Origin: Verrucomicrobia bacterium UBA6982
GTDB taxonomy: Bacteria; Verrucomicrobiota; Kiritimatiellia; RFP12; UBA3636
Direction: 5' to 3'
Assembly: GCA_002448475.1 (NCBI GenBank)
Contig: DJYI01000049.1
Location: 5,475-69,474, forward strand
DNA: 64,000 nucleotides
In this document: positions 233-50,409 of the stretch, one piece after another
How the letters are laid out: each line of letters begins with the position of its first letter
Numbering within the stretch: the first letter of the stretch is position 1
Position numbers and translations under genes: made by a program
Notes under the pieces: model-generated
What the model saw: the letters and a program-made list of their open reading frames with translations, nothing else
What the model was told of the DNA's origin: nothing
Database searches by the model: none

Positions 233-2659
233 ATGAACATGCCCCGTTTGCATTCCCTTTGCGCCTCTCTCTGCGTCCTTTGCGCCGGTTCCGCCGCCGG
301 CGGCATCAAATGCGTCGCGCACCGCGGCGACTATCCCGACGCGCCGGAACATTCGATGGCCGCTTACCGCAACGCGGTGGAGCGCGGCAGCGAGGTGCTG
401 AAGCTCGACGTTCATCCGTCCAGGGACGGCGTGATCGTCCTTTCCCACGACCCTACCTTCAAGCGCACGATGGGCTGGGACGTCCGGATCCGCGATGTCA
501 CATGGGACGAAATCCGGCGGCACACCTATCTCCTGGGCGGGCAACCCACGCAGGAGCGCGCCATATCGCTCCCGGAGGCGCTTGAAGTCGTGAAGTCGAT
601 CCCGGAGTTTTGGATTGACTTCAAGTCCTTTGATCCGGACTTTGCCGAACGGGTGCTCGCGACCTTCGCGCAGTTTGGAATCGGCCAGGACCGCCTCATG
701 GTGGCGACCTACAATGGCGACGCCCTGCAATACTTTCGCAAGGCACACCCATCGATCCGCCGCATCGTCCACATCGACTTTTGCGAACAGGACGGCAAAT
801 GGTCCCTTTCCTTTGAGAGGCACTTGGGAATCCTGTGCCGAAAAGCCGCCGACGGCGAGCCGTATTCGCCGGAAGTGGCCGAACACATTCTCGAATGCGC
901 CCGGACGCTCGACCTCTGGGGCGTGAATCTAGGCGCCGTGCCGCAGGTCGTCACGCCGGGACTCGTTGCGCGGCTGCACGGCGAAGGGCTGGCCGTCTCG
1001 CTCGCGCTCGTCCACGATGCCGCGACGGCGCGCGTTTTCGCCAATCACGGCGGGGACTTCGTCGTGACGCGCGACCGCCGCGTTGTAGCGCCGATCATAT
1101 GCGCTGGACAAAGAAAGGAACTTTGCTGGCAATGCGGGCCCAACGCCCGCATCGAGGGGAATCTGCTCATTGCCGAAGTTCCGCCAGGCGAGGAGAAGAC
1201 CGGCGGTCTCGCCACGGCCGAGATCGACCTTTCGGCGTGGGATGGCAAGCCCGTCGGGGCGGAGATCGTCGCGAGCGGCGAGCGCATCGCGAAGCCGCTC
1301 CACTGGTACACCGGCCTCAAGTTCCAGTTCGAATACGAGGATTCGCTCTCCGGCGAGTGGAGCTACCCGAACACGCCCGGACGCCTCGGCGACTTCCCGG
1401 AGCAGACGATTCGCGTCTCCGACCTCGCCTCCGGCGTGTCGCGCACGAAGGCGCGCATGATGATCGGCCTCCAGGAGACGAGCGGCCGCGCCGTCTTCGA
1501 CCTCTCCACCCTCCGCATAGGCGACCCCGTGCCTCTCTGGCCCATCACGAACCAGAACCACCGGTGCGCGTACACTGGAAGTCTTAACGCGGAGGCGCAG
1601 AGACGCGGAGAAACGCAGAGTGACAATCTTGCAATCCTGTCTACTCAATCTTCGGGCGAAAACGCCTCTGCGCCTCTGTGTCTCTGCGTTAAAAAATTGC
1701 GCGGCGTCATGTCCCCGTCGCGGAAGGAGCCGCCGTTCATGACGGAGGCCGACTTCGACACGCTTCAGTCGTGGGGCGTCACCCTGATCCGCTACCAGAT
1801 GTCGAGCAACGACGTGCGGCCCGACGGCGAAGACGCCGTCGCGTGGTTCGACCGCTGGCTGGCACCCAAGCTCGACCACTTCGATTCGTTCCTCCTTCCC
1901 GAAGCGGTGAAACGCGGCATGAAGGTCGTCCTCGACCTCCACGAGCCCCCTGGCAGCAGGGACGAGTCAAACGAAATGCGGATGTTCCACGACGAGCGCC
2001 TGGCCACACATTTCGTCGAAACGTGGCGCCGCATCGCCGAGCGCTTCAAGGGGCGCGAGGGAATCTACGGCTACGACCTCGTCAACGAGCCGATGCAGAT
2101 CTCGGAGGCGGCGCCGGACTGCGATTTCTGGACGGTCCAGAAACGCGCCGCCGAGGCCATCCGCGAAATTGACCCGGACATTCCGATCCTCGTGGAATGC
2201 AACTCCCAGGACGACCCGGCGGCGTTTGCGTCCTTCTCGCCGCTGGACCTGACGAACATCATTTACGAAGTCCACATGTACAAGCCGCTCGCCTACACGC
2301 ACCAGGGCGTCATGTGGAAGCAGGGCGAACTGCGCACGTATCCCGACGAATCGAAAGGCTGGAACAAGGACTACCTGCGGGCGTGCCTCAAGCCGGTGCG
2401 CGACTTCCAGCTGCGGCACGGCGCGAAGATCTACGCGGGCGAGTTCAGCGCCGTCGCATGGGCCCCGGGGGCGGACCAATACCTGCGCGACTGCATCGAC
2501 CTCTTCGAGGAATACGGCTGGGACTGGACCTACCACGCCTTCCGCGAATCCGGCGTCTGGAACGTCGAATGGGAGGGACCGGACCGCGACTCCCTCGGCC
2601 CCGCGAAAGGCGACACCCCGCGCAAGAAGGCGCTGCTCGACGGCTTGCGGCGGGAGTGA
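233..2659 (+). CDS. Secreted fusion protein: N-terminal glycerophosphodiester phosphodiesterase (GDPD) domain, a beta-sandwich (CBM-like) middle domain, and a C-terminal GH5 (cellulase-family) glycoside hydrolase.
   Basis: Signal peptide MNMPRLHSLCASLCVLCAGSAAG. GDPD motif HRGDYPD...ENS-type (VAHRGDYPDAPEHSMAAYRNAVERG). GH5 acid/base motif GYDLVNEP and nucleophile motif YAGEFSA. The C-terminal two thirds are paralogous to CDS 8058..9761. The ORF track begins at 74 (GTG), but the signal peptide starts at Met 233/239. Confidence 0.8.
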   Translation: MNMPRLHSLCASLCVLCAGSAAGGIKCVAHRGDYPDAPEHSMAAYRNAVERGSEVLKLDVHPSRDGVIVLSHDPTFKRTMGWDVRIRDVTWDEIRRHTYLLGGQPTQERAISLPEALEVVKSIPEFWIDFKSFDPDFAERVLATFAQFGIGQDRLMVATYNGDALQYFRKAHPSIRRIVHIDFCEQDGKWSLSFERHLGILCRKAADGEPYSPEVAEHILECARTLDLWGVNLGAVPQVVTPGLVARLHGEGLAVSLALVHDAATARVFANHGGDFVVTRDRRVVAPIICAGQRKELCWQCGPNARIEGNLLIAEVPPGEEKTGGLATAEIDLSAWDGKPVGAEIVASGERIAKPLHWYTGLKFQFEYEDSLSGEWSYPNTPGRLGDFPEQTIRVSDLASGVSRTKARMMIGLQETSGRAVFDLSTLRIGDPVPLWPITNQNHRCAYTGSLNAEAQRRGETQSDNLAILSTQSSGENASAPLCLCVKKLRGVMSPSRKEPPFMTEADFDTLQSWGVTLIRYQMSSNDVRPDGEDAVAWFDRWLAPKLDHFDSFLLPEAVKRGMKVVLDLHEPPGSRDESNEMRMFHDERLATHFVETWRRIAERFKGREGIYGYDLVNEPMQISEAAPDCDFWTVQKRAAEAIREIDPDIPILVECNSQDDPAAFASFSPLDLTNIIYEVHMYKPLAYTHQGVMWKQGELRTYPDESKGWNKDYLRACLKPVRDFQLRHGAKIYAGEFSAVAWAPGADQYLRDCIDLFEEYGWDWTYHAFRESGVWNVEWEGPDRDSLGPAKGDTPRKKALLDGLRRE
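1584..1696. repeat. GC-rich palindromic (hairpin) element of about 113 bp inserted in frame in the linker of the GDPD-GH5 gene.
   Basis: Inverted repeats TTAACGCGGAGGCGCAGAGACGCGGAGAAACGCAGAG ... CTCTGCGCCTCTGTGTCTCTGCGTTAAAAAA. It encodes a roughly 40-aa segment (TGSLNAEAQRRGETQSDNLAILSTQSSGENASAPLCLCVK) that is absent from the paralog. Confidence 0.7.
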
Positions 2660-2769
2660 TGTTCGAGAATCCGAATGCAGTCGAATGCCGTCGATAGCGG
2701 TCGATGGCAATCGATTGCAGCCGGTAGCAGTCGATTGGGCTCATTGCCAGTTTTCCTTCCAACACCGTC

Positions 2770-5472
2770 ATGTCATGCATCCCCGTCGGCCTCGTCGCCG
2801 AATTCCTTGAAAATCCGATATGCCTTGAAACCCCGACGCCGCGCCTGTCGTGGCGTCTTGACGATTCGCGCACCGGCGCGAGGCAGACTGCATATCGCAT
2901 CGTCGCCGCGTCGTCCGCCGCCAGACTCGAAGCGGAGCATTGCGACATCTGGGACTCGGGCAAGGTTCGGAGCGAAAACACGCTGGACATCGTGTGGGGT
3001 GCAGGGCCGCTGCGTTCGCGCGCTTCCGTCTTCTGGCGCGTAATGGTCTGGGACAAGGACGGCAAGCCTTCGCCGTGGAGCGCCATCGCGCATTTCGAGA
3101 TCGGGCCGTTTGCGCCGGGCGACATCGCGGCATCGTGGATTGGCTCCGCGCGGCCCCGCACGAAGTCCGACATGCCCGTGCCGATGTTCCGCAAGGCGTT
3201 TTGCCTGCCCGCCGCGCCGGTCCGTGCGCGGCTCTACGCCACGGCCTTCGGAGATCTCGCAATGTCCGTCAACGGCCGCCCCTCCGGCGATGACCTCTTC
3301 GTGCCCGGATGGACCGACTACGGCAAGCGCGTCCCACTCGTCGCATGGGACGTGACGCCGCATTTGCGCGCGGGCGAAAACGTCCTTGGCGCGATGCTCG
3401 CAGACGGCTGGTTCGCCGGGACGATGGTCTGGCCGGACCACCGCAACCATTACGGGAGGCACACCGCCTTCATGGCGCAGCTGGAGGTCGAGTTCGCCGA
3501 CGGAACGCGGCAGGTCGTCGTCTCGGATGCCTCCTGGCACTGCACGGAGCGCGGCCCCATCCGCGCTTCGGACCACTACAACGGCGAAACCTACGACGCG
3601 AGGCTTGAAATGCCCGGATGGGACGCGCCTGGCTTCGCCGCGCGCGGCTGGCGTCGCGCCGCCGTCATCGAGGACCGCCCCAACGCGGCGCTCTGCGGCC
3701 GCATCGCCGGCCCGGTGCGCCGGCAGGAGGTCCTTGCGGCCCGGCGCCGCACCGAGCCGCAGCCGGGGCGCTATGTCTTTGACTTCGGACAGAATATGGT
3801 CGGCGTGCCGCGCATAGCCCTGAGCGGCAGCCCCGGAGCGAAAATCACGATCCGCTACGCCGAGATGCTCAATCCCGACGGCACGCTCTACACCGCCAAC
3901 TACCGCACGGCCAAATCGACGGACGTTTACATCTGCGGCTTGGCAGCCACAAAGAACACAAAGAGGCACAAAGGTTTTGCGGACTCCGTGTCCTCTGTGC
4001 CTGGAAATGAAACCTACGAGCCGCGCTTCACCTACCACGGCTTTCGTTATATCGAGCTTTCCGGCGATTTTTCCGCGCCGCCGGAATGCGGCGACGTCGT
4101 AGGCGTCGTTATCCATTCCGACATGGCGCAGACCGGCGCATTCGAATGTTCCGACCCTCTCGCCAACCGGCTCTTCTCCAACATCAACTGGGGGCAGCGC
4201 GGCAACTACTTCGAAGTGCCGACCGACTGCCCGCAGCGCGACGAACGTCTCGGCTGGCTCGGCGACGCGCAGGTCTTTATCCGCACCGCCGCCTACAATC
4301 GCGACATCGCGGCCTTCATGGAAAAGTGGATGCGCGACATCTCCGACGCGCAGCACGCCGACGGCGCCTTCACGGACATCGCGCCGGATGTCTTTCCCTT
4401 CGAGAACCACGGGCACTGCGGCTACGCCGACGCCGGCGTGGTCGTCCCGTGGACGATGTACCAGTTCTACGGCGATCTCGAAATCCTCCGGCGGCACTTC
4501 GACGCCATGGCGCGCTGGGTCGGCTGGTGGGAGCGCATCGCCGGGCCGGGGCTCGTCATCCCCTACAGGGGCGAAGGCAGCTGGCACTACGGCGACTGGC
4601 TCGCGGTCGATTGCCCCGTGGACGAAGACGGCCATCCGATCCGGGAAGGCGCCCCGACCCCGACCGACCTCCTCGCGACCGCGTATTTCGCGCGTTCCGC
4701 CGGCATCGTGGCCGACGCGGCGCGCGCCCTCGGGCGCAAGGCCGACGCGCGGCGGTTCGACGCGCTCCGCCGCCGCGTGGCAGCCGCCTACCGCCGGCAG
4801 TTCGTGACGCCCGGCGGACGTGTCGCGGGCGACACGCAGACCGGGTATCTCGTCACGCTCGGATTCGGGCTCGTGGACGACAGACAAACCGTGGCCCGCA
4901 TGGTGGACAGGCTTGCGTTCCTCGTCGAGTCGCGCGACTGCTCGCTCACGACGGGATTCCTCGGGACGCCGCTCGTCTGTCCCGTGCTGACGCGATTCGG
5001 CCGCGCCGATCTGGCCTACAGGATCTTCCAGCGCCGCAAGTATCCGTCATGGTATTTCCAGATACTCGACGGCGACGCCACGACGATGTGGGAGCGCTGG
5101 AACAGCTATTCCTCCAAGTCGGGCTTCGGCGACGCGAACATGAATTCCTTCAACCACTACGCCTACGGCGCGATAGGGGAATGGATGTTCGAAACGCTCG
5201 CCGGCATCTCTCCCATGGAGCCGGGCTTCCGTAAAATACGGTTCTCGCCCATCCCGGGAGGGGATGTGACCTGGGCAAGGGCATCGATCGCAACCAGACA
5301 CGGAACGGCGTCGATCCATTGGCGCAAACAGAAGGGCGGCCGCATCGCCGTCGATCTCGTCGTTCCGCCGTGCACAACCGCCGTGCTGGAACTGCCCGGC
5401 GCCGCGCCGCGCGAACTACAGGCGGGGCACCACCACATGACCGTCCAGGGCCTTCCGGGAAACTTCGCATAG
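2770..5472 (+). CDS. alpha-L-rhamnosidase, GH78, cytoplasmic (no signal peptide).
   Basis: N-terminal PRLSWRL motif and the GH78 catalytic-region signature EVPTDCPQRDERLGWLGDAQVF. Length 900 aa. Confidence 0.85.
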   Translation: MSCIPVGLVAEFLENPICLETPTPRLSWRLDDSRTGARQTAYRIVAASSAARLEAEHCDIWDSGKVRSENTLDIVWGAGPLRSRASVFWRVMVWDKDGKPSPWSAIAHFEIGPFAPGDIAASWIGSARPRTKSDMPVPMFRKAFCLPAAPVRARLYATAFGDLAMSVNGRPSGDDLFVPGWTDYGKRVPLVAWDVTPHLRAGENVLGAMLADGWFAGTMVWPDHRNHYGRHTAFMAQLEVEFADGTRQVVVSDASWHCTERGPIRASDHYNGETYDARLEMPGWDAPGFAARGWRRAAVIEDRPNAALCGRIAGPVRRQEVLAARRRTEPQPGRYVFDFGQNMVGVPRIALSGSPGAKITIRYAEMLNPDGTLYTANYRTAKSTDVYICGLAATKNTKRHKGFADSVSSVPGNETYEPRFTYHGFRYIELSGDFSAPPECGDVVGVVIHSDMAQTGAFECSDPLANRLFSNINWGQRGNYFEVPTDCPQRDERLGWLGDAQVFIRTAAYNRDIAAFMEKWMRDISDAQHADGAFTDIAPDVFPFENHGHCGYADAGVVVPWTMYQFYGDLEILRRHFDAMARWVGWWERIAGPGLVIPYRGEGSWHYGDWLAVDCPVDEDGHPIREGAPTPTDLLATAYFARSAGIVADAARALGRKADARRFDALRRRVAAAYRRQFVTPGGRVAGDTQTGYLVTLGFGLVDDRQTVARMVDRLAFLVESRDCSLTTGFLGTPLVCPVLTRFGRADLAYRIFQRRKYPSWYFQILDGDATTMWERWNSYSSKSGFGDANMNSFNHYAYGAIGEWMFETLAGISPMEPGFRKIRFSPIPGGDVTWARASIATRHGTASIHWRKQKGGRIAVDLVVPPCTTAVLELPGAAPRELQAGHHHMTVQGLPGNFA
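3946..4003. repeat. Short palindromic element of the CACAAAG-repeat family, inserted in frame in the rhamnosidase gene.
   Basis: GCCACAAAGAACACAAAGAGGCACAAAGG....CCGTGTCCTCTGTGCCTGG. Its 5' arm matches the intergenic element at 63825..63945. It encodes ...AATKNTKRHKGFADSVSSVPG.... Confidence 0.5.
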
Positions 5473-5547
5473 GCCACTTCACATTGGCCAAACAATACAG
5501 CGTGCTATTTTTTTCCAACGAATCGAGAGCAATCGGGTATTCTCCAG

Positions 5548-6606
5548 TTGAGGGCGCTGCACGCCCGTCCCCGAATGATCTCGATCGTCGAAGAACTCCG
5601 CACGAACCGCGAAAGCGGCGCAAAACGGCTTGAAGCCGAATACAAGGCCGGTCTCATGACTCTGGCCCGGCGCTTCCACGCCGACGAAGGCGACGCCGAG
5701 GAACTCGTCAACCGCACGCTGGCCGAAGTCATCGCGGGCATCGACGCCTATCTGGAGCAATCCGCCTTTTTCGGCTGGATGTGCAAGATCCTCGAAAACC
5801 AATACTCCAAGGACGTGCGTCGCAAGTCGAACAGGACAATTGTCGAGGCACCCGAAGCATTGGACGCGGCGGACGACGCGGATGCGGCCAACCGGATTTT
5901 CCGCGAAGTCGATGCGGCGATTCTCCGCGACGCCATCGCCACGCTTCCCGACGACATGAAGGACGCGCTCATGCTCCGCTATTTCATGGACATGCCCGTC
6001 GGGCGCGTGGCGAAAATCCTGTCGGTCCCGGAGGGCACCGTGAAGTGGCGCCTGCATTGCGCCCGGCTCACGCTCTCCGCCAAGCTCGGCGCCGCCGCGA
6101 AGAAGCCGGGCGGCAGGTCCGTCCTCCTCGCGCTGGCGCTCTGCGGCTTCGCGGCACTTGGCGCGGCGGTGTGGAACCTCGGGTGGGGCGAGCCGTCCCG
6201 GCGAGCCGACGCCCCCGCCTGGGCCTACGGCGAGGGGACGGGCGGGACCGGCGGGACGGGCGGGACCGGCGGGACGGGCGGGACCGGCCTTCAACCTTTC
6301 AACTTTTCATCCGAACAATCAACTGAACAACCCCAACAGGAAACCTCCTCTATGACCATACGCACACGTTCCGCGGCGCTGGGCGCCGCCTCCGCGCTGG
6401 CGCTTGCCAGTGCGCCTTCCGCCGCCTCCGGCGACGAATACCAGTTCATCGTCTCCGGCGATCCGGCCGCCGCCGCGACGGCGGGCGTCGTCGAGGCGGA
6501 ATCGACGGCCGGCCCGCTGGACGTCCGCCACCATGCCGTCGCCGAATCGCGCGCGATGGCCCTTTCGTCGATCAAAAACGGCAGTTTCGTCATTGTCGTC
6601 AGGTAG
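5548..6606 (+). CDS. ECF-type sigma-70 factor (regions 2 and 4) whose ORF continues, with no stop codon, through a TM segment, a GTGG tandem repeat and an intergenic-type octamer array into a small secreted-protein coding segment.
   Basis: Sigma region 4 helix-turn-helix LMLRYFMDMPVGRVAKILSVPEGTVKWRLHCAR. It is followed by the TM-like segment SVLLALALCGFAALGAAVW, then EGTGGTGGTGGTGGTGGTG, then LQPFNF (from the CTTTCAAC array), then MTIRTRS.... Confidence 0.6.
   Translation: MRALHARPRMISIVEELRTNRESGAKRLEAEYKAGLMTLARRFHADEGDAEELVNRTLAEVIAGIDAYLEQSAFFGWMCKILENQYSKDVRRKSNRTIVEAPEALDAADDADAANRIFREVDAAILRDAIATLPDDMKDALMLRYFMDMPVGRVAKILSVPEGTVKWRLHCARLTLSAKLGAAAKKPGGRSVLLALALCGFAALGAAVWNLGWGEPSRRADAPAWAYGEGTGGTGGTGGTGGTGGTGLQPFNFSSEQSTEQPQQETSSMTIRTRSAALGAASALALASAPSAASGDEYQFIVSGDPAAAATAGVVEAESTAGPLDVRHHAVAESRAMALSSIKNGSFVIVVR
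6232..6290. repeat. Tandem repeat of an 18-bp unit (GGGACGGGCGGGACCGGC), about 3 copies, encoding (GTGG)n.
   Basis: Direct reading of the sequence 6232-6290. Confidence 0.8.
6291..6320. repeat. CTTTCAAC octamer array (CCTTCAACCTTTCAACTTTTCA).
   Basis: The same motif array is found at 9781-9803, 9893-9920 and, reverse-complemented, at 63740-63773. Confidence 0.7.
6352..6606 (+). CDS. Possible separate small secreted protein (85 aa) with a signal peptide and a C-terminal ...NGSFVIVVR.
   Basis: ATG at 6352 is followed by the signal-peptide-like MTIRTRSAALGAASALALASAPSAASG. It is in the same frame as the sigma ORF with no intervening stop. The C-terminal motif is shared with four other secreted proteins. 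Confidence 0.4.
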   Translation: MTIRTRSAALGAASALALASAPSAASGDEYQFIVSGDPAAAATAGVVEAESTAGPLDVRHHAVAESRAMALSSIKNGSFVIVVR

Positions 6607-6638
6607 CAAACTCGCCCAAAAACAAAGGAGAACACACC

Positions 6639-8009
6639 ATGAACCTCGCAAAACGTCTTTCGCTTCTCGCCTGCCTGTCCGCCGCGTCGGCCGCCACGGC
6701 CGTTGACGTGACCAACGTCAAGATGACCCAGAACACCGTCAACTGCAAGGTGACCATCACCTACGAACTCTCGGGACCGGCCGTCGTCACGCTCGACATC
6801 CTCACGAACGCCATTCCGAATGCTACGACCGGGTGGACATCCATTGGCGGCCAATACATCTCCAGCGCAACGGGCGCCGTATGGCGCAAGGTGACGGACG
6901 CCGACGCCGCGAACGGCGTCTGCACGATCACATGGAAGCCGGCCGATTCGTGGCTCGACGAGAGCGGCGAAGGCTTCAAGGTGGGCGACGGCTGCGCCAA
7001 GGCCGTCGTCTCGGCCTGGCCGCTCGACAATCCGCCCGACTACATGGTGGTGGACCTCTCCGCCTCAGCGCAGCCGAACACGCAACGCTACTACCCGGCC
7101 GTCGATTTCCTCCCCGGCGGGTTGCTCGACAACGGCGACTACCGCGAATCCTCGCTCGTGATGCGCAAGGTCCCCGCCGCCGGCGTCGAGTGGACGATGG
7201 GCAGCGTCGCCGAGCTTGGCCGCATCACTGCCAAAGAGGCGACGCACAAGGTGCGACTTGACGCCAACTACTACCTCGGCGTATTTCCCGTGACGCAGTC
7301 GCAGTGGGCACTCGTCCAGCCGAGCCGCCCGAATCCGTCATGCTTCCAATACGAGGCCGACAAAAAGTGGCGCCCCGTCGAATATGTCTGCTACAATGAG
7401 CTACGCCTCAGCAATTCAGAAACAAGCGGAGCGGCGACCTACTACTGGCCGAACCCTCCGCACGCCAACTCCTTCATTGGTCGTCTGCGCACGAAGACCG
7501 GCATCGCGTTCGACCTGCCGTCTGAGGCGCAGTGGGAGTTCGCCTGCCGCGCAGGGAACGGAGAGGGCAAGTGGGGCGACGGTTCGGACTACCTGTCCAA
7601 CACGACCGACGCCAACCTTGCGGCCCTGGCCTGCTACGGGCGCGCAGACATCCAGAACCAGGTGTCCGAGGGCAACACGACCTGGTCCGCCGCCGACGGC
7701 GGCACGATGCCGGTTGGCACCCACGCCCCGAACGCATGGGGCTTCTACGACATGAACGGCAATGTATTCGAGCCGTGCAACGACTGGTTCGAGAACAATC
7801 CGTCCGCGCATGGGGGAGCCGTGAACGTGGATCCCGCCAATCCCGCGAAAGACCTCACCGGCAACGCTGGCACATATCGTGTCTGGCGTGGAGGCTCGTA
7901 TCGCCACTCCGCCGCATCGTGCCGTAGCGCCTTTCGCACAGAGGGAATTTCCAACGGCCGCTACAACATCGCAGGCGTCCGCGTAGCGTGCCCCGCAAGC
8001 GCGGAATAA
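6639..8009 (+). CDS. Secreted protein with a C-terminal formylglycine-generating-enzyme (FGE/SUMF1)-like domain.
   Basis: Signal peptide. Motifs HKVRLDANYYLGVFPVTQSQW, WEFACRAG, YDMNGNVFEPCNDW and RVWRGGSYRHSAASCRSAFR are typical of the FGE-sulfatase domain family. A good RBS (AAAGGAG) lies upstream. Confidence 0.8.
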   Translation: MNLAKRLSLLACLSAASAATAVDVTNVKMTQNTVNCKVTITYELSGPAVVTLDILTNAIPNATTGWTSIGGQYISSATGAVWRKVTDADAANGVCTITWKPADSWLDESGEGFKVGDGCAKAVVSAWPLDNPPDYMVVDLSASAQPNTQRYYPAVDFLPGGLLDNGDYRESSLVMRKVPAAGVEWTMGSVAELGRITAKEATHKVRLDANYYLGVFPVTQSQWALVQPSRPNPSCFQYEADKKWRPVEYVCYNELRLSNSETSGAATYYWPNPPHANSFIGRLRTKTGIAFDLPSEAQWEFACRAGNGEGKWGDGSDYLSNTTDANLAALACYGRADIQNQVSEGNTTWSAADGGTMPVGTHAPNAWGFYDMNGNVFEPCNDWFENNPSAHGGAVNVDPANPAKDLTGNAGTYRVWRGGSYRHSAASCRSAFRTEGISNGRYNIAGVRVACPASAE

Positions 8010-8057
8010 GGCTGAAAGGCTTTCGAAGCCCCTGCGGCGATCATCCGAACCCAAGAC

Positions 8058-9761
8058 ATGAAAACAATATTCCTTCTCGCCGCCGGCTTCTCCCTGGCGG
8101 CGGGCGCCCCGGCGTGCGCCGCCGGGCAGGATACCCGCCTCGCCGAACACGGCGGCCGCGTCTGGCGGCTCTCGCCGGGCTGCCGCATCGACGGCGACCA
8201 GCTCACGGTCTCGATCCCGGAGGGCCTTTACCCGCAGACCCAGTGGGCGCGGACGGACATCGACCTCTCGCCGTGGGAGGGGCGCGGCTTCGAGGCGCAC
8301 GTCCGGGTCCGCGGCGAGGACATCGCCACGCCGACGCAGCCGTGGCTCGGCTTCAAGTTCATGCTCAGCTGGCGCGACCGGTTCACGGGCGCCATGCGCT
8401 ATCCCGGCGCCGGCGCGCCGCTCGGCGCGTTTCCGTGGCAGGACGTCTCGTTTCGCCAAATGGGCTGGTTCCGCGGTGCGGATGGCCCCGGCACACTCCA
8501 TCTCGGGCTTCAGGGAACATCCGGCACCGTCGTCTTCGACCTCTCGTCGCTCCGCATCGGCGATCTCGCGCCGATCTGGCCCGTCACGAACCAGAACCAC
8601 CGGTGCGAGTATTTCGCACCGAAGGGAATGTTCACAAATCTCAAGTGTTCACAAATCGACAATGCCACAAATAACAATTGCGGCGCGCCCGGCGGTCGCG
8701 CCCTACCGGTAGGGGCCGACCGCCGGGCGGCCCGCAATTTTGATTCGCCATTTATGAACAATGATGAACAATTGTCATTTGTGAACAATGCCGCCAAGCG
8801 GCTCGCTCCCCTAAGGGGCGTGATGTCGCCAAGCGGCCGCGACATGAACGAGGACGACTTCGCGACGCTCGCCTCGTGGGGCGCGACGCTTCTGCGCTAC
8901 CAGATGGTGCGCGACTGGCACGGCGTGGGAACCAACGCCGACCTCGAAGACTACGACCGCTGGCTGGACGGCAAGCTCGACCATGTCGAGGGCGTCGTGC
9001 TGCCGCTCGCCCGGAAATACGGGCTGAAGGTCGCCATCGACCTGCACGTCACGCCCGGGGGACGCGACGCCTCGCACGAAATGAACATGTTCCACGACGC
9101 GACATTCGCCGGCCATTTCGTCGAATGCTGGCGACGCATCGCGCGGCGCTTCAAGGGCAACGGCGACGCGATCTACGGCTACGACCTCTGCAACGAGCCG
9201 CAGCAGCAGCGCGCGGCGCCGCCGGGAATGGACGGCTGGAACCTCCAGCGCCGCGCCGCCGAGGCGATCCGGGAAATCGACCCGGAAACGCCGATCATCG
9301 TGGAATGCAACGCCAACGACGCGCCGGACGGCTACCGCAACCTCTCGCCGCTCACCCTGACGAACGTCATCTACGAAGTCCACATGTATGGGCCCGGCGA
9401 CTTCACGCACCAGGGGATCCAGGGGATGTCGATGGCGCGCTGCCGCTGGCCGGACGCGTCGCGCGGATGGGATGCTGGCTTCCTGCGCTCCGCGCTCGCG
9501 CCAGTGCGCCAGTTCCAGCTGCGCCACGGCGCGAAAATCTACGTTGGCGAGTTCAGCGCCGTCGCGTGGGCGGAGGGCGCGGACATCTGGCTCCGCGACA
9601 TCATTTCCGTTTTCGGGGAATACGGCTGGGACTGGACCTACCACGCCTTTCGCGAATGGCGCGGATGGAGCGTCGAGCACGAAGGCCCGGACATCGACCA
9701 CATGGCGCCGTCCGCCGACAACCCGCGCAAGCGCGCCCTTCTGGAGGGCCTGCGGCGCTGA
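8058..9761 (+). CDS. Secreted CBM-like plus GH5 glycoside hydrolase, paralog of the C-terminal part of 233..2659.
   Basis: Signal peptide MKTIFLLAAGFSLAAGAPA. GH5 motifs GYDLCNEP and VGEFSAV. Alignable to ORF1 across the beta-sandwich and the TIM barrel. Confidence 0.8.
   Translation: MKTIFLLAAGFSLAAGAPACAAGQDTRLAEHGGRVWRLSPGCRIDGDQLTVSIPEGLYPQTQWARTDIDLSPWEGRGFEAHVRVRGEDIATPTQPWLGFKFMLSWRDRFTGAMRYPGAGAPLGAFPWQDVSFRQMGWFRGADGPGTLHLGLQGTSGTVVFDLSSLRIGDLAPIWPVTNQNHRCEYFAPKGMFTNLKCSQIDNATNNNCGAPGGRALPVGADRRAARNFDSPFMNNDEQLSFVNNAAKRLAPLRGVMSPSGRDMNEDDFATLASWGATLLRYQMVRDWHGVGTNADLEDYDRWLDGKLDHVEGVVLPLARKYGLKVAIDLHVTPGGRDASHEMNMFHDATFAGHFVECWRRIARRFKGNGDAIYGYDLCNEPQQQRAAPPGMDGWNLQRRAAEAIREIDPETPIIVECNANDAPDGYRNLSPLTLTNVIYEVHMYGPGDFTHQGIQGMSMARCRWPDASRGWDAGFLRSALAPVRQFQLRHGAKIYVGEFSAVAWAEGADIWLRDIISVFGEYGWDWTYHAFREWRGWSVEHEGPDIDHMAPSADNPRKRALLEGLRR
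8626..8790. mobile_element. MITE-like element (TGTTCACAAAT-TIR family, about 165 bp) inserted in frame in the GH5 paralog linker.
   Basis: 5' end ATGTTCACAAATCTCAAGTGTTCACAAATCGACAATG. 3' end ATGAACAATGATGAACAATTGTCATTTGTGAACAAT (inverted). GC-rich palindromic core GCGCGCCCGGCGGTCGCGCCCTACCGGTAGGGGCCGACCGCCGGGCGGCCCGC. The ends are similar to the TIRs of the composite element at 10876..11380. It encodes 61 extra aa at the same linker position where ORF1 carries a different element. Confidence 0.7.
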
Positions 9762-10733: not shown

Positions 10734-10768
10734 TATCCGATTGTGTCGCGCGCTTCCGCTCGTCGTCG

Positions 10769-10875: not shown

Positions 10876-11380
10876 TCGAAGAATTGTTCACAATTGACAA
10901 TTGAGACAAATGTTCACAAATGGGAAATGACAAATTCATCTTCTGTCCTGTTCGTTAAGATTTCGCCGGGCCGTTGTCACGCTTGCGTAGAAAATCTTTA
11001 TCAATTCTTCGGTTTCCTGCAATACGTGCGACACGAGATTTTGATCGGCATAATTCCTCATCGCGATGATACGAAGCCACATTCTGGTTTCAATGAGTTC
11101 CTTGAGCGCGATATTTGTCTTGTGGGCGAAATCTTTGCGCGATTCCGGAACGCACGCCTCGGCATAATTGGCTGCAACCGACGTGGCTGCTCGAAACAAT
11201 TGGTCCTGGAGGTGCGCTTTCCCGATTTTGGAAACCATGGATTCGCAAACATCGATGGCCGCTGCTGCAAAAGCCGCTACCCGGAATTCAATTTCGGAAG
11301 ACGTTAGCATGGCAAATTGCGTTTTGTTATTTGTGAACAATTGTTTCAATTGAAAATTGTGAACACTCTAGCAGAGCGCG
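10876..11380. mobile_element. AT-rich (about 45-48% GC) ~0.5-kb element with ~50-bp imperfect terminal inverted repeats of the TGTTCACAA family. It carries a four-helix-bundle gene and replaces the middle of an AAA-ATPase gene copy.
   Basis: Left TIR ATTGTTCACAATTGACAATTGAGACAAATGTTCACAAAT. Reverse complement of the right TIR AGTGTTCACAATTTTCAATTGAAACAATTGTTCACAAAT. Low GC compared with the flanks. Flanked by the N- and C-terminal fragments of the ATPase paralog. Confidence 0.7.
10936..11310 (-). CDS. Four-helix-bundle protein of the 23S rRNA intervening-sequence / DGR Avd-like family (PF05635/TIGR02436-like).
   Basis: Motifs LQDQLFRAATSVAANYAEACVPESRKDFAHKTNIALKELIETRMWL match the family consensus (L..Q..RAA.S...NIAEG ... 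S.K.F..........E....L). Length about 124 aa from ATG 11310; the ORF track's TTG at 11349 lies inside the TIR. Confidence 0.75.
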   Translation of the reverse strand: MLTSSEIEFRVAAFAAAAIDVCESMVSKIGKAHLQDQLFRAATSVAANYAEACVPESRKDFAHKTNIALKELIETRMWLRIIAMRNYADQNLVSHVLQETEELIKIFYASVTTARRNLNEQDRR

Positions 11381-17371: not shown

Positions 17372-18577
17372 CTATGTGTGAGAATTCTCCTTCCTCCACT
17401 CCCGCAGGGACTTTCCCATGCGAGCGCGGAAGACGCGCCGGAGTTCCACGCCGGAGCCGAAGCCGCAGAAGTCGGCGATGGCCCCGATGGCCGTGTCGGT
17501 GCCGGAGAGAAGCGCGAAGACCTTCTCCAGGCGGACGTACTGGATTTCGTCGAGGACGGAATGCCCCGTCGCCTCGCGGAAGCGCAGGTTGAAGAGTCGG
17601 CGCGAGCAGCGGAAGCGCCTGGCAAGCGTCATGGCCGTGAGGCCGTCGCACGCCTCGCGCCGGATCATCTCGACCGCCTCCAGGACGAACTTCTCGCGCC
17701 GCCCCGCGCCGCCGGTGGAGCGTCGACGCACGGCGAGGAGCGGGGCGATGAAAAAGGTTTTTGGATCACACGGAGCCACAGAGACACGGAGATTTGCATT
17801 TCGGCTCCGTGTCTCCGTGTCTCTGTGTGAGGTCTTGTTCCCGATCATCCTCGCCGCGACATATCCGGCGCGCTCATGGTCGAGCTGGATGCTTGAAATG
17901 GCCGGTTCGGACGTCTCGCAGACCGTGAGGTCGTTGTCGACACCAAGCAGCGTCAGTTCACGCGGGATGTCGCGCCGGGAAGCCTTCGCGGCGGCCACGA
18001 CTTCGGTGGCAATGCGGTCGTTGACGGCGAAGATGGCGGTCTTTTGCGGCAGTTCCTCCACGAATCGGGCAAGACGTTCCATCCTCTTGATCTCCGGCTC
18101 TTCGCGGAACGGGAACGTGTGGCACGACATTCCGGCTTCCCCGCAAAGTGCGGAGAAGGCGTCGATCCGCTTTCCAGCCCATTCGACATCCCAGCAAGCG
18201 CCGACCACCGCATACGCGGCGGGGCGCCCGGCGGAGAGTTCTTGGAAGGCAGCGCGCGCGACGGCCTCGTTGTCGGCCGAGACGCGGACGATCCGGCCTC
18301 CGTAGAGCGACGGTGCGGCGTGGAGATAGACGACCGGAACGCGCCCGAACAGGCGCGGCGGGAGATGCGAGTTGCCGTCCGAGCACTCGACCACGCAGCC
18401 CGCGACGGGGCGGTGCGCCCCGAGCAGCGGGGCGATGTCCTCCGGGCGCGATTCCTGCCACGGCACGGATCGAACCTCCCATCCCAGCGCTCCGGCGTAG
18501 CGCCGGATGCCGGCGAGCGTTATCGCCTGGATGCGGTCGCCTTTGGCGGTGTTGAGGTATAGGATGGTCGAAGGCAT
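17372..18577 (-). CDS. XylR-like transcriptional regulator: periplasmic-binding-protein-fold sugar-sensing N-domain plus C-terminal AraC-family helix-turn-helix.
   Basis: C-terminal AraC signature ...LTAMTLARRFRCSRRLFNLRFREATGHSVLDEIQYVRLEKV...FCGFGS..LRRVFRARMGKS. Paralog of 27021..28220. The start was trimmed to MPSTILYLN (18577). Confidence 0.75.
   Translation of the reverse strand: MPSTILYLNTAKGDRIQAITLAGIRRYAGALGWEVRSVPWQESRPEDIAPLLGAHRPVAGCVVECSDGNSHLPPRLFGRVPVVYLHAAPSLYGGRIVRVSADNEAVARAAFQELSAGRPAAYAVVGACWDVEWAGKRIDAFSALCGEAGMSCHTFPFREEPEIKRMERLARFVEELPQKTAIFAVNDRIATEVVAAAKASRRDIPRELTLLGVDNDLTVCETSEPAISSIQLDHERAGYVAARMIGNKTSHRDTETRSRNANLRVSVAPCDPKTFFIAPLLAVRRRSTGGAGRREKFVLEAVEMIRREACDGLTAMTLARRFRCSRRLFNLRFREATGHSVLDEIQYVRLEKVFALLSGTDTAIGAIADFCGFGSGVELRRVFRARMGKSLREWRKENSHT
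17766..17830. repeat. 65-bp perfect-stem palindromic element inserted in frame in the XylR-like gene (interdomain region).
   Basis: CACACGGAGCCACAGAGACACGGAG atttgcattt CGGCTCCGTGTCTCCGTGTCTCTGTGTG. It shares the CAGAGAC(G/A)CGGAG motif with the element at 1584..1696. It encodes ...SHRDTETRSRNANLRVSVAP.... Confidence 0.7.
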
Positions 18578-18657
18578 CGTCACATCGCATGGCGAATGAC
18601 TGGCGGAAGAGTCATCTTGGGTAGTCCTGGCCGCAAAACCGACGGAGTCCGCCGTCG

Positions 18658-20232
18658 CTACAGCCCGACGACGTGGATGGTCTTGCCGCCGAACGCCACG
18701 TCGCGGTTGAAGAGCTTTTCGTCCCAGGACTTGCCGGAGTCGTCGTCGAAGACCGGCATCCAGCCTTCGGCGAGACCGAGGGAACCGAGGTAGTCGGCGA
18801 GCTGCGCGTAGGACTTCTCCCCGGCGAAGTTCTTCGAGGTCTTGACCTCGATCGCGTAGCGCTTGCCCCGATACTCCACGCAGAGGTCGAGGCGGCGGGA
18901 CCCCAGCGCCATTTCGCGCAGGATGTGCCCGTCGCCGTTCGTGACGCGCTGCAGGAACGCCATGAGGACGAGGTGCGGCAGCGCCTCCTGGTAGTCGTGA
19001 GGGTTGCGGAGGACGCCGCTGTTTTCGCGCCAGAACGCCTGGAACGCCGCCATGAGTCCGGGCATGTCGAGACCGTCGGGCAACGCCCAAGGCGTCTGCG
19101 GAACGGACTTCACCATGTCGTCCTGCGTATCGCGGGTGAGATAGCGCCCGATGATTTCCGCATACATCCGGTTGGACGGGACGAGTTCGCGCAAGTCGTT
19201 TTCCCGCATGAGGCCAAGGTCGATGACGAACCGGTAGTCCTCGCTGTCACGGGATACCGGGCTGGCGCCGCCGAAGATGACGGGTTCGACCACACGCCGG
19301 ACGCGCGGCTCGCGGAGGCGCTCCATGAGGCTGTCCACGTGCGTGTCGCGGCGTCGAATGATCGTCTCCTTGGCCGTTTCCACGTCGGCCGCGGTAATCG
19401 GGGCCGCGTAGTCGAAGGAGTGGATTTCCTCGACGCACTCGCGGGCGATGGCATTGACGAGCCAAGGTTGGCCGCGCGTGAACTCCCAGACCCGATCGAG
19501 CGCTTCCTTTTCGAAGACCTGCCCCGTCGCCACGGTGTGCTGCGCGTAGAGGGCGGCGATCTCAGCCTCCGTGAAGTTGCGAAGCATCAGGTCCTTGGTG
19601 ATGATGTTGAAGGGGCTGATCTGGCCGCGCGACTCCCCGTCGGGGCGAATCTGGGCCTTGTAGTCGCGCACGTCCAGCATCCCGATCAGGGCGATGGAGG
19701 CTGGGAACGGAACAGAATCGCGGTTTACGTATCCGTCGCGAAGCTGGCGCAGGAAGGAGATCAGCACATTTCCCGCGAGGCAGTCCGCCTCGTCAAAGAA
19801 CACCACGAGCGGCTTCCTTACGCGGCGGCAAAGCGAGGTCAAAACCTCCCTGACGGCGAGGGACTCGGCGGCATACGTCGGGCCGGATTCCTCGACGCGC
19901 GGCAGTTCGCCGGATTCGGGAAAGTATTCCGGGAGCGTGTTCCGGGCCGCGAAAAGGAGCAGCCCGCGGATGGCGTCGGCGGAGCGGGCCGAATCCGTGG
20001 CGTTCTGGAGCGTTTCCAGCGTGCAGTAGAGCGCAACCCTTTCCCCCTTGGCGTTGATTTCGCGGACGAGCGCCTTGACGGTTGTCGTCTTGCCCGTCTG
20101 CCGCGGTGCGTGGATGACGAAATACGTCTCCTGCTCGACAAGGCGCCGAATTTCCGGCATCCGGTCGAGAGCGGGCAGCATGTAATGCTTGGCGGGGAAG
20201 CAGGGGCCCGCAACGTTGAAGTATTTTTCCAT
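18658..20232 (-). CDS. AAA-ATPase (PF09820-like) with a C-terminal PD-(D/E)XK nuclease-like domain (PDDEXK_9-like).
   Basis: Walker A HAPRQTGKTTTV. C-terminal RLDLCVEYRGKRYAIEVKTS (D...E.K). 524 aa. Confidence 0.8.
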   Translation of the reverse strand: MEKYFNVAGPCFPAKHYMLPALDRMPEIRRLVEQETYFVIHAPRQTGKTTTVKALVREINAKGERVALYCTLETLQNATDSARSADAIRGLLLFAARNTLPEYFPESGELPRVEESGPTYAAESLAVREVLTSLCRRVRKPLVVFFDEADCLAGNVLISFLRQLRDGYVNRDSVPFPASIALIGMLDVRDYKAQIRPDGESRGQISPFNIITKDLMLRNFTEAEIAALYAQHTVATGQVFEKEALDRVWEFTRGQPWLVNAIARECVEEIHSFDYAAPITAADVETAKETIIRRRDTHVDSLMERLREPRVRRVVEPVIFGGASPVSRDSEDYRFVIDLGLMRENDLRELVPSNRMYAEIIGRYLTRDTQDDMVKSVPQTPWALPDGLDMPGLMAAFQAFWRENSGVLRNPHDYQEALPHLVLMAFLQRVTNGDGHILREMALGSRRLDLCVEYRGKRYAIEVKTSKNFAGEKSYAQLADYLGSLGLAEGWMPVFDDDSGKSWDEKLFNRDVAFGGKTIHVVGL

Positions 20233-20259
20233 GTTGGCCTCCGTGTCGTGACGCCGCCA

Positions 20260-30412: not shown

Positions 30413-30465
30413 GGTTGGGGGTTCCGAAGATTGCGCGTCGCGAAGTCTGTTTTGCGCGCCGGGCT

Positions 30466-31449
30466 TCAGCCAAGAGGCGCGCAGAGCGAGAGCAGTTCCC
30501 CGACGTCGGCGGTGGCGAGGCATTCGACCGTGTCGGCGGCGCCGTAGTAGATCTTCACCTCGCCGGAGTCTTCGAGGATCATGCCGCCGGGGAAGATCAC
30601 GTTGCCGCGAAAGCCCGAGGTCTCGTAGCGCTCGACGGGCGGTAGGATCGGCTCGCGCGAGAGGCCGATGACCTTCGACGGGTCGTCGAGGTCGAGCAGC
30701 ATAAGTCCCGCGCAGTATTCCTTGTGCCAGCTGCCTTCCCACGAGGCAAGTTCGCGATCGACGACGCGCACGGCGTGGAACGTGGCAAGCCAGCCCTTCG
30801 TGGTGCGGATCGGCGGCGCGGCCGGGCCGATCTTCGTGGTGGCGTAGGGCACGCTTTCGGCGCCGATGACGAGCCGGGATTCGCCCCAGAAGCGAAGGTC
30901 GGGCGACTCTGAGAGCCAGATGTCGAACGCCTCGGTTTTCCCGTAGCGGGAATAGACCGGCATCGGACGCTCGAGCCGAACGTAGCGCCCGCCGATTTTC
31001 TCCGGAAAGACAGCCATGTTGCGGTCGTCCGGAACGGAGAGCGACCGGATTTCAAAGTGCTCGAAGTCCTCCGTGGTCGCCACGCCGCCGCGCAGGCCAT
31101 GCCGGGTGTCCATCGCGAAGCAGAGCACGACGCGACCCTCGACCACGGTAAGGCGCGGATCATAGACGCGCAGTATCTCGTCGTCGTGCAATTCAAGGAC
31201 TGGCTTGGGCCCGACTGTCCAGCGCACGCCGTCCCGGCTGCGGGCGATGCCGAGGTTTGTTGACAAACCGGGGAACGGAAGCCCCCTGGAGGCCGCTTCA
31301 CGCCACTGCGACTCCGTCGATCCGTAGTCGTTGCGGAAGAGCATCACGTATTCTCCCTGCCACTTGCAAACGCCGGCGTTGAAAACCAGCGATGCGTCGA
31401 AGGGGACGTCCTTCGCGGAGAGGACGGGGTTGAGGGGGGAGCGGACCAT
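30466..31449 (-). CDS. GH130 family glycoside phosphorylase/hydrolase (beta-mannoside phosphorylase-like).
   Basis: Five-bladed beta-propeller family hallmarks including KIYYGAADTV near the C-terminus. 327 aa, no signal peptide. Confidence 0.75.
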   Translation of the reverse strand: MVRSPLNPVLSAKDVPFDASLVFNAGVCKWQGEYVMLFRNDYGSTESQWREAASRGLPFPGLSTNLGIARSRDGVRWTVGPKPVLELHDDEILRVYDPRLTVVEGRVVLCFAMDTRHGLRGGVATTEDFEHFEIRSLSVPDDRNMAVFPEKIGGRYVRLERPMPVYSRYGKTEAFDIWLSESPDLRFWGESRLVIGAESVPYATTKIGPAAPPIRTTKGWLATFHAVRVVDRELASWEGSWHKEYCAGLMLLDLDDPSKVIGLSREPILPPVERYETSGFRGNVIFPGGMILEDSGEVKIYYGAADTVECLATADVGELLSLCAPLG

Positions 31450-42061: not shown

Positions 42062-42945
42062 CGGCGCTGGCGCTTGTCCTTGCCACCATTGCGGCCCTGT
42101 CCGGCGACAGGGTGATATATGGCGACCCAACCGGTCCCGTGCCGCTCGAAATGCCCGCGACGCTTGGGCCGTGGAGCGGCGAGAAGGTCCGTTTTTGCCA
42201 GAGCGACCAGTGCGCGGCCTCGTTTCTGGTTTCGACGCTCCCCCCCGACGCCGCCGAATGCCCGATGTGCGGCGCTCCTCTCGGCGACATTTCCGTGGGT
42301 GAAATGTCCCTTCTGCCGGAGAACACGCCGATTTTCCGCAGCGCCTACCGCCGCGCCGGGCATCCGGACGTAATGGCCACGTTCGTGTTTTCTGGCATGG
42401 AGCGCCGTTCAATCCACAAGCCCCAGCGCTGTCTTGTCGCCCAGGGTAACCGCATTACCGACGAATACACTCTCCACGTGCCGAACGACGTTTCCGACCC
42501 CGACTCGCGCATGTCGGTGCGCGTGCTGGAAATCTCGCACCCGGTGCGCGGCGCCGACGGCAAGGTGACCGGGCAGAACGCGAGCGTTTACGTTTACTGG
42601 CTTTTCAATCCGGAGCGGGAGACGGTCCATCACTGGGTGCGGCTCGGATGGATGCTTTTCGACAACGCCTTCCGCTCCTACCGTCCGCGCTGGGGATACG
42701 CCTCGATCACGATTCCCCGCGATCCAGAGTCTCCCGACGCCTGGAGGGCGGAACTGGAGGACTTCCTTCCCCGCCTGTATCCGACCGTCACGGCGCTTCG
42801 CCGCGATCTTGATTCGCGGCGCGACCGGGTGTTCAGGCTCTCAGGCCATTCCTGGGACTCCAACGTTTACGAAGGCGACAACGCGGCTCTGACGCGCCAC
42901 ATCAGGCCCGGTCCCGCCAAGCCGGCCCCCAAAAAAGAGAAATGA
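42025..42945 (+). CDS. Exosortase-associated EpsI-like protein with an N-terminal TM anchor and a Cys4 zinc-ribbon insertion.
   Basis: Overlaps the exosortase 3' end. TM segment LPGLTALALVLATIAAL. CQSDQC...CPMCG. The position and size fit EpsI-family partners of exosortases; similarity is weak, so this is inference. Confidence 0.5.
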   Translation: MLAQAKKALPGLTALALVLATIAALSGDRVIYGDPTGPVPLEMPATLGPWSGEKVRFCQSDQCAASFLVSTLPPDAAECPMCGAPLGDISVGEMSLLPENTPIFRSAYRRAGHPDVMATFVFSGMERRSIHKPQRCLVAQGNRITDEYTLHVPNDVSDPDSRMSVRVLEISHPVRGADGKVTGQNASVYVYWLFNPERETVHHWVRLGWMLFDNAFRSYRPRWGYASITIPRDPESPDAWRAELEDFLPRLYPTVTALRRDLDSRRDRVFRLSGHSWDSNVYEGDNAALTRHIRPGPAKPAPKKEK

Positions 42946-50408: not shown

Positions 50409-50409
50409 T

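Follow-up and report, generated by a model that had tools for sequence, protein, structure and literature searches.

In-frame palindromic repeats in protein genes are classically represented by the Rickettsia palindromic elements (RPEs) (PMC10969869). Intragenic in-frame repeats have also been described by Di Nocera et al. (2013) for the GTAG and CGTC groups of repetitive extragenic palindromes (REPs), which are most numerous in Opitutus terrae, a bacterium of the Planctomycetes-Verrucomicrobia-Chlamydiae group, and in the recB gene of Xanthomonas different REPs are found at about one site, with neutrality in flexible linkers as the proposed explanation (PMC3733652). The intervening sequences (IVSs) of 23S rRNA are hairpins that hold an S23p open reading frame (ORF) inside a long terminal stem, are cut out by RNase III, and are regarded as selfish (PMC4990558). 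Template switching, in turn, creates and corrects perfect short inverted repeats by copying one arm from the other (PMC5941160). Here, a stretch of 64,000 nucleotides from a rumen member of the Kiritimatiellae (contig DJYI01000049.1 of Verrucomicrobia bacterium UBA6982, positions 5,475 to 69,474; hereafter the window, with a mean GC content of 64%) was analyzed. In this window two paralogous genes for enzymes of glycoside hydrolase family 5 (GH5), g1 and g2, each carry a palindromic insert in the linker that precedes the GH5 domain.

The inserts are dispersed palindromic repeats that lie in frame in a segment of predicted disorder, with borders that carry templated inverted copies of host codons, and across the GH5 family this one site has been filled, swapped, and eroded repeatedly. 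They belong to a known kind, given that in-frame intragenic RPEs and REPs have already been described (PMC10969869, PMC3733652). In the RPE, REP, and IVS literature cited here we did not find described the scale at which a single site is re-used across a protein family, or the inverted duplications templated by the flanks and their covariation, or an in-frame miniature derivative of a PF05635 element in an enzyme gene with a GTAG REP dimer at its tip. An earlier note on this DNA, made from the letters alone, had offered three explanations for the two inserts: a tolerated insertion hot spot, replacement of an ancestral element in one copy, and a functional role of the linker peptides.

Results

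Stop-to-stop ORFs from 97 loci were aligned to a profile of the family, and the stretch from NQxHRCxY to RGVM was extracted. This recovered 82 linkers, to which those of loci L097 and L098 were later added, giving 84 homologs from rumen Kiritimatiellae, where homologs of g2 are abundant in metagenome-assembled genomes (MAGs) and metagenomes. The linker has 6-12 aa in 35 of the 84 loci and 13-91 aa in about 48, and the long linkers fall into at least eight repeat (motif) classes. These are TGTTCACAA arms (10 loci), GTGACGAG units with peptides of the type VTSDERRVTSE...SLVTRHSSLVT (6 loci), arrays of AATGAMG / CKTCATT modules interleaved with GC mini-hairpins (14 loci), CACAGAG heptads, the g1 type, TCGACA, and GTAG dimers (2 loci each), and CGCAAAGA (1 locus), with 12 further loci unclassified. 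The 120 best database proteins have equally diverse linker inserts. None of the inserts contains a stop or breaks the frame, their length is a multiple of three in about 48 loci, and in none of the 97 loci is the GH5 gene split at the linker with its domains in separate ORFs.

The turnover of this site is fast. Gain, replacement, and erosion of elements occur on a time scale of 10-15% protein divergence. Mobility is indicated by elements of the VTSDE type, which show no target-site duplication and are 81-98% identical where their flanks are 68-80% identical. In the AlphaFold model of g2, the predicted local distance difference test score (pLDDT) falls below 50 exactly at residues 190-247, which correspond to the insert, with a confident beta-sandwich (27-168) before it and the GH5 barrel (from residue 253) after it. 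The low confidence at the insert, together with inserts of at least eight classes in about 48 of the 84 homologs, supports, and considerably extends, the proposal of a hot spot tolerated in an unstructured interdomain linker. The functional role proposed for variable linker peptides, by contrast, finds no support, as these peptides have nothing in common beyond being stop-free and predicted to be disordered.

Like RPEs, the repeats are short palindromes of several families that lie in frame in unrelated genes, are presumably translated, and are tolerated in surface loops or linkers (PMC10969869); the inserts are imperfect palindromes able to form long hairpins, in frame in a linker, with dispersed copies in unrelated genes or sites. 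They differ from RPEs in having a host of another phylum, no sequence relation, one site re-used by at least eight classes, and fast turnover, and the inverted copies of host codons at their borders were not found described for RPEs (PMC10969869). The linker arrays with CGTC(ATT) followed by a GC mini-hairpin resemble CGTC REPs.

The genes g1 and g2 are genuine paralogs; their proteins share 48% aa identity across 541 aa, and Pfam finds only GDPD and Cellulase in them; the exact g1 protein was matched on a 69.5-kb metagenome contig. A third GH5 gene, at 28256..30742 on the minus strand, was excluded because it is not of the linker-bearing family. At the DNA level, g1 and g2 run in parallel up to ...ACGAACCAGAACCACCGGTGCG(C/A)GTA(C/T), the codons of TNQNHRCxY. 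Similarity is lost immediately 3' of ...ACCAGAACCACCGGTGCG(C/A)GTA(C/T) (NQNHRCxY) and regained at the codons of LRGVMSPS. The g1 element starts 10 nt past the conserved Tyr codon and ends 4 nt ahead of the Leu codon, while that of g2 starts 14 nt past the former and ends 21 nt ahead of the latter, and the residues between the conserved borders and the elements cannot be aligned. The two inserts thus occupy one ancestral linker of 7-9 codons, and an identical nucleotide position is not demonstrable. The earlier note had given correct coordinates for an insert in both paralogs (Table 1); its exactly homologous position holds for the linker and not for the nucleotide, and its border motifs, VTNQNHRC and LRGVMSPS, are indeed conserved borders, with g1 reading ITNQNHRC. 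The DNA-level comparison that it had called for defined the borders of the elements; as target-site duplications it yielded only ambiguous candidates, TTAA in g1 and AAT in g2. The predicted folds have energies of -63 kcal/mol for region 1560-1710 of g1 (151 nt) and -105 kcal/mol for region 8600-8815 of g2.

The arms of the g1 insert are built from units of the ACGCRGAG type and are read as the peptide LNAEAQRRGE...SAPLCLCV, with three of the six frames open. The hairpin had been called GC-rich, which does not stand: its GC content is 54%, below that of the window. TTAA is found on either side, yet it is itself palindromic and could belong to the stem. The left border keeps a vestigial flank hairpin, CCGGTG (1561-1566) / CACTGG (1573-1578), with five of six bases paired, the counterpart of which is a clear hairpin in L098 (CATCGCTG..CAGCGGATG) and in L097 (a perfect 13-bp stem). 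No second copy of the g1 hairpin is present within the window, where only hairpins of similar style occur (3943-4008 and 17766-17830), and since the g1 type is known from linker copies only (L098, P0101, P0102, P0105), the evidence for dispersal is weaker for this repeat family.

Two syntenic orthologs bear on the history of this insert. In L098 (73% aa identity, without GDPD) the g1 hairpin sits at the identical nucleotide, 10 nt past the Tyr codon, and its frame is that of g1. L097, which is 90.6% identical, has a different linker content, consisting of the left flank hairpin, two TGTTCACAAAT motifs (a half-element), and a perfect 13-bp right flank hairpin; a linker peptide of the same TGTTCACAAAT type is found in P0245-P0247, which belong to the 90%-identity cluster of g1. 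Most simply, the g1-type hairpin would be old and one sub-lineage would have replaced it. In principle this supports the replacement of an ancestral element that the earlier note had considered, given the g1 hairpin in L098 and the half-element in L097 and P0245-P0247.

The g2 insert, taken before for a single AT-rich element, consists of two nested elements, AT-rich arms and a GTAG core. The left arm has TGTTCACAAAT twice and the right arm has its complement, and two of the six frames are open. The right arm aligns over about 55 nt with an arm of the element at 10885-11365, which carries the gene of an IVS protein and lies about 2 kb downstream; the alignment scores 47, against a maximum of 25 in 500 shuffles, for which reason the g2 insert is regarded as a miniature, ORF-less relative of the IVS-protein element. 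The motif TGTTCACAA, with at most one mismatch, occurs 16 times in the window versus 5.7 expected (shuffle maximum 11), and its arms are dispersed: three lineages of GH5 paralogs have TGTTCACAA arms, as do the IVS-protein element and an intergenic site (L015:4586).

The core sits exactly at the tip of the AT-rich hairpin. Its junction reads ...GCGCCCTACC|GGTAGGGGCCGACCGCCGGGCGGCCC..., and it is a head-to-head dimer of GC-rich stem-loops, each of which ends in GTAG, as in GTAG REPs and REP doublets (REPINs). The sizes of stem and loop differ from the published consensus of GTAG REPs, as do the nesting in another element and the far larger re-use of one site, and no gene for a REP-associated tyrosine transposase (RAYT) is seen near the copies in the 64-kb window. 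An identical 34-nt core stands alone in the linker of L109, the GH5 protein of which is only 53% identical to that of g2; the whole composite of arms and core is present in L108 (61% protein identity); and CCCTACCGGTAGGG, the center of the core, also lies inside the rhamnosidase genes of L079 and L096. Given this recurrence, the core is taken to be a mobile repeat nested in another hairpin.

Both borders of the g2 insert show inverted host codons. The codons F-A-P that follow the Tyr are the reverse complement of the conserved R-C-E codons, and the right arm of the right flank hairpin is made of the R-G-V codons; at the homologous place of L108, GCCGCGCAGCGGC is an inverted copy of the P-L-R-G codons of L108 itself. 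AAT lies on either side of GTTCAC..GTGAAC in g2, L015, and L017, which is not so at the IVS-protein element. The composite of L005 (97% aa identity) is identical to that of g2, and the orthologs at 84-87% identity keep only remnants, either one g2-type arm (L001, L002, L018, with the left motif GGGAATGTTCACAAATCCCGATC...) or fused ends, AATG|GTGGACAAT, with the same downstream mini-hairpin as g2 (L017, P0002). These remnants are different internal deletions of a g2-like element. Both the g1 and the g2 linkers differ between this genome and a related MAG, one contig of which bears both L002 and L097. CAMOSH is the closest public MAG (94-97% aa identity), and in it the contig of L005 ends and that of L004 starts within about 35 nt past the g2-type insert, which suggests that hairpin inserts fragment assemblies.

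The IVS-protein element has 52-nt inverted ends at 10885-10936 and 11314-11365 that carry TGTTCACAA motifs. It takes the place of 1260 nt of an AAA-ATPase gene, an intact paralog of which lies at 18658..20232. Close homologs of the protein are mostly on very short contigs; an identical protein (P0186) lies behind two different upstream genes, and in L107 the unit again interrupts an AAA-ATPase gene. Judged from these sequences, the element is multi-copy. It was also observed to recur inside or directly behind AAA-ATPase_like (PF09820 / AAA_16) genes at varying positions (L100, L103, L105, L106, L107); such genes, compared in the window between 10761-11593 and 18650-20248, could be where the element preferentially resides, or may repeatedly take part in deletions with it.

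Like an IVS, the full-size element has a PF05635 ORF within terminal inverted repeats or a long stem, a GC content below that of the host, and a selfish appearance (PMC4990558); in the g2 insert the stem is present and the ORF is not. The IVSs of rRNA lie in helix 25 or 45 of 23S rRNA, whereas here a full copy lies in an AAA-ATPase gene and a miniature keeps the frame of an enzyme gene. With Rfam at gathering thresholds, the entire window gave no match and hence no rRNA, and both elements are within protein-coding genes. According to Pfam, the element at 10885-11365 encodes no transposase and only the PF05635 four-helix-bundle protein. The g2 insert has ends in common with a larger element, as a classical miniature inverted-repeat transposable element (MITE) does, and differs from a MITE in that the larger element encodes no transposase.

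In many loci, the conserved codons up to and including the Tyr are followed by their own exact reverse complement, as in L087 (AACCGGGACTGGATCGTCCG-CTACC-CGGACGATCCAGTCCCGGTT) and L014 (TGGGTGGTGCGG-TAT-CCGCACCACCCA), so that the first linker residues (PDDPVPV, PHHP, FAP) are encoded by mirror codons. At the right border, an inverted copy precedes the P-L-R-G-(C/V)-M codons, giving the frequent AAQRRxP; the right hairpin of L055 reads CATGCAGCCGCGCGGCGGC-GGAC-GCCGCTGCGCGGCTGCATG. With a flank hairpin defined as a perfect stem of at least 7 bp with one arm on conserved codons, 27% of the left and 27% of the right borders have one, compared with 0.8% of control positions in the same genes. Elements adjoin the flank hairpins at 0-4 nt. 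Two flank hairpins with no element are found in L064 and L014, and "fossil" right arms of older coding sequence in L035 and L029.

The two arms of a flank hairpin change together. In eight loci with a common downstream element, the 20-bp left hairpin covaries with its protein-constrained arm, and each of the codons for W, Y, and F has its match on the opposite arm. Seven of the 20 pairs changed on both sides, which was matched by none of 500 shuffles, slid controls collapse, and only two G-U cells are seen. Watson-Crick double changes with almost no G-U intermediates agree with copying of DNA. The products of quasipalindrome mutagenesis (PMC5941160) match both the flank hairpins and their covariation. 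What differs here is that the copied stretch can reach at least 25 nt of conserved coding sequence and that mobile-hairpin borders and signal-peptide ends gain the copy as new in-frame codons.

A second hot spot was observed in the same GH5 genes directly after the signal peptide (L032:2400-2500, L074:720-780, L023:1085-1130, L064:540-590), where one-armed CACTCGTCACT arrays adjoin an inverted copy of downstream host codons. In further loci, the last codons of the signal peptide and the first of the mature domain are perfect reverse complements of one another (L054:2542-2578, L039-L041:2520-2573, L046:531-574, L061:727-772), for instance TSTLAV / AANVDV, encoded by GACATCGACGTTGGCGG-TTG-CCGCCAACGTCGATGTC. 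In these, a portion of the signal peptide has the appearance of an inverted duplication made from a template.

Beyond the GH5 linkers, other permissive sites show similar behavior: hairpins occur in frame in a rhamnosidase gene and in a regulator gene, so that with g1 and g2 there are four in-frame hairpins in 64 kb. The rhamnosidase hairpin is common to the window and L097 and absent in L098; at the YICG|ETYEPRF site of the rhamnosidase, different repeats are found, including the head-to-head GTAG core in L079:5360-5440 and L096:5250-5330. The hairpin of the regulator ORF (17372..18601, minus strand) encodes the peptide SHRDTETRSRNANLRVSVAPC. The intergenic unit at 42940-42978 lies directly downstream of a GDPD gene, and its family forms the long arrays in the GH5 linkers of other lineages.

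Other repeats of the window were seen as well. AT-rich CCTTTCAAC / GTTGAAAGG repeats lie in or near intergenic DNA at 6287-6313, 9784-9919, 50398-50424, and 63741-63776, and the 27 nt at 9893-9919 are perfectly complementary to 63741-63767. A tandem 39-nt unit, in at least seven copies that are 62-86% identical, lies at 59162-59512 inside a DUF4340 ORF (59158..60195, minus strand), and at 6235-6290 a GGGACSGGC repeat encodes a (GT)n-like GTGGTGGTGGTGGTG near the C-terminal part of the ORF of an ECF-type sigma factor (5548..6606).

Table 1. Position and nature of the features of the window discussed in the text.
Feature	Position	Strand	Description	Basis
g1	233..2659	+	GDPD + beta-sandwich + GH5, 808 aa	ORF; Pfam GDPD aa 30-190, Cellulase aa 501-769
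g1 left border	1550..1583	+	NQNHRCAY codons + 10 nt	sequence
g1 insert	1584..1692	+	109-nt imperfect palindrome TTAACGC..GCGTTAA (TTAACGCGGAGGCGCAGAG...CTCTGCGCCTCTGTGTCTCTGCGTTAA)	inverted repeat, folding
Rhamnosidase hairpin	3943..4008	+	in-frame, CACAAAG units, in a loop of an alpha-L-rhamnosidase gene	folding
g2	8058..9761	+	beta-sandwich + GH5, 567 aa	ORF; Pfam GH5; AlphaFold2 (AF2) mean pLDDT 82
g2 left flank hairpin	8601..8621	+	CGGTGCGA-GTATT-TCGCACCG	sequence, folding
g2 insert	8627..8789	+	163-nt AT-rich palindrome without ORF; arms 8627-8669, 8746-8789	inverted repeats
g2 nested core	8670..8745	+	head-to-head GTAG-tagged GC-rich REP dimer, ..GCGCCCTACC|GGTAGGGGCC..	38-nt arms, 0 nt apart
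g2 right border	8790..8823	+	mini-hairpin GCCGC-CAA-GCGGC (8790-8802), then flank hairpin TCGCTCCCC-TAA-GGGGCGTGA (8803-8823)	sequence, folding
IVS-protein element, full-size relative of g2 arms	10885..11365	-	23S_rRNA_IVP (PF05635) gene 10936..11349, probable ATG 11310, between 52-nt inverted ends	Pfam, E = 3.6e-19
Regulator hairpin	17766..17830	-	in-frame, CACRGAG units, between Peripla_BP_3 and AraC-HTH domains	inverted repeat
AATGACG..CGTCATT-family unit	42940..42978	.	intergenic palindrome AAATGACGTTCCGGGCC-GCCAT-GGCCGGGAACGTCATTT	inverted repeat

Discussion

The reading that we favor, and consider reasonably probable, is that the inserts are non-autonomous palindromes of the REP/REPIN, RPE, or MITE kind that a permissive, disordered linker has allowed to persist, and that local instability stems from template switching driven by the hairpins. 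They would be translated as inert extra linker peptide and be near-neutral. The hot spot is probably a combination of tolerance, shelter from deletion, and replication trouble induced by the hairpins. The linker would accept any stop-free peptide, and the inserts would be sheltered from the usual deletion bias because an imprecise deletion would harm an essential reading frame. A resident hairpin may then make the site unstable in replication: the fork would stall at the stem, and the nascent strand would fold back or switch template, leaving an inverted copy of the flank codons exactly at the border of the element. We infer that the same template-switch mechanism may also correct the arms, delete the sequence between them, and nest or swap in other hairpin repeats.

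Several simpler readings were rejected. Introns, inteins, and bypass do not agree with inserts that are stop-free and a multiple of three long, and g2 has mutations in those right-arm motifs that would otherwise give TGA; a self-splicing intron or known structured RNA is further contradicted by the Rfam result, and an intein by the absence of such a domain among the Pfam matches of the two proteins (GDPD and Cellulase only). Internal restart at the invariant Met after the linker was discarded, given that RGVM is conserved in GH5-only homologs with their own signal peptide and forms the first beta-strand of the barrel, and an intrinsic terminator was discarded since no T run lies 3' of either hairpin. 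An assembly artefact does not fit inserts that recur in independent assemblies with normal divergence and with the fossil arms of L035 and L029. The orientation bias toward a purine-rich first arm is automatic in any palindrome and uninformative, and chance coincidence of the two insertions is ruled out by the family-wide data.

A number of points weigh against the reading of retained palindromes. All data are metagenome assemblies. No convincing target-site duplication was found, the candidates being those named above for g1 and g2, and no RAYT, transposase, or reverse transcriptase was found among the 36 window ORFs scanned with Pfam (64 kb of genome). A census of 533 kb (the window and 96 loci), made with home-made thresholds and rough gene calls, places 32 of 60 strong hairpins inside this linker; their density is about 14 per kb of ancestral linker, versus about 0.09 in non-coding and 0.04 in other coding DNA. 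This excess over non-coding DNA of about 100-fold, i.e., about two orders of magnitude, speaks for the hot spot; tolerance alone does not explain it, and it could also reflect true site-specific targeting. The covariation of the flank hairpins could also mean selection for structure. Finally, the g2 linker is colinear with that of L108, has an equal length, and is about 88% identical to it, where the DNA of the flanking gene is 76-79% identical, which hints at lateral exchange or at constraint on the insert and not at pure neutrality.

The excess of hairpins in the linker is what structure-specific targeting would produce. According to this explanation, a mobilizing enzyme (a RAYT-like HUH/tyrosine transposase or another factor) recognizes the hairpin formed by the flank codons and inserts beside it, so that the linker is a true integration site. 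The close contact between element and flank hairpin is seen in independent cases (L022, L061, L070, and the N-terminal sites of L032, L074, and L023), seven of 35 short linkers have flank hairpins without an element, and GTAG REPs presumably owe their movement to RAYTs that act on hairpin DNA (PMC3733652). Nonetheless, the flank hairpins are themselves secondary, as one arm is an inverted copy of host codons, and linkers with an element have them more often (27 of 47 long linkers versus 7 of 35 short ones). Their centers vary between lineages, lying mostly at the Tyr codon and 9 nt further in L061 and L070, and g1 has only a vestige of one. Moreover, at least eight unrelated repeat classes would need a single target preference, and the scanned window ORFs include no RAYT. 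On balance, targeting seems unlikely to us.

Equally doubtful at present is a bolder version of events, in which coding sequence in rumen Kiritimatiellae is built and remodelled by an undescribed hairpin-driven process, the repeats spreading via template switching or fold-back repair at existing hairpins with no classical transposase. If this were true, miniature derivatives of 23S rRNA intervening sequences that lack the ORF would be among the spreading repeats, inverted host-codon copies at both borders would be the signature, and the process would provide raw material for interdomain linkers and signal-peptide ends. The Avd-like four-helix-bundle protein of the full-size element could in that case be a hairpin-binding helper.

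An adaptive role, in which the length or composition of the linker tunes the enzyme, or hairpins in mRNA or DNA regulate expression (for instance if translation pauses between the domains or RNase III processes the transcript), is very unlikely. It would account for a reading frame that is always kept, for the covarying left flank hairpin, and for the composite insert of g2 and L108, the flanks of which are less conserved, and the rRNA relatives of the AT-rich element are RNase III substrates (PMC4990558). However, the peptides share no sequence, length, or composition, with linkers ranging from 6 to 91 aa, 35 of 84 homologs have no insert at all, and decay remnants are common. The Watson-Crick double changes without G-U intermediates are those expected from DNA copying, and neither an Rfam family nor a terminator-like T run was found.

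Homologous exchange, by which linker cassettes would move between paralogs or co-resident lineages through gene conversion or recombination with the conserved flanks as anchors, would account for one repeat family at one place in distant genes, for the g2/L108 similarity, and for the best g1-g2 DNA conservation directly upstream of the linker (81% over 109 nt, with 23 identical bases, versus 70-79% elsewhere), and may contribute, but is highly improbable as a general explanation, given that g1 and g2 hold different repeat families, which leaves the pair unexplained, that VTSDE-type elements lie at different junctions in HRCAY-type and IVRYP-type genes, and that exchange cannot give rise to the diversity of repeat families.

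In practice, the inserts break assemblies, inflate the diversity of protein lengths, and yield spurious low-complexity "motifs" in annotation. They are also natural experiments on how hairpin repeats choose or create their sites, on how fold-back copying writes codons, and on whether the ORF-carrying intervening sequences of rRNA fall within a larger group of mobile hairpins. Dozens of events of gain, swap, and decay can be recorded at a single permissive site, and selfish palindromic DNA can steadily supply linker sequence to the secreted carbohydrate-active enzymes of an abundant and little-studied rumen lineage.

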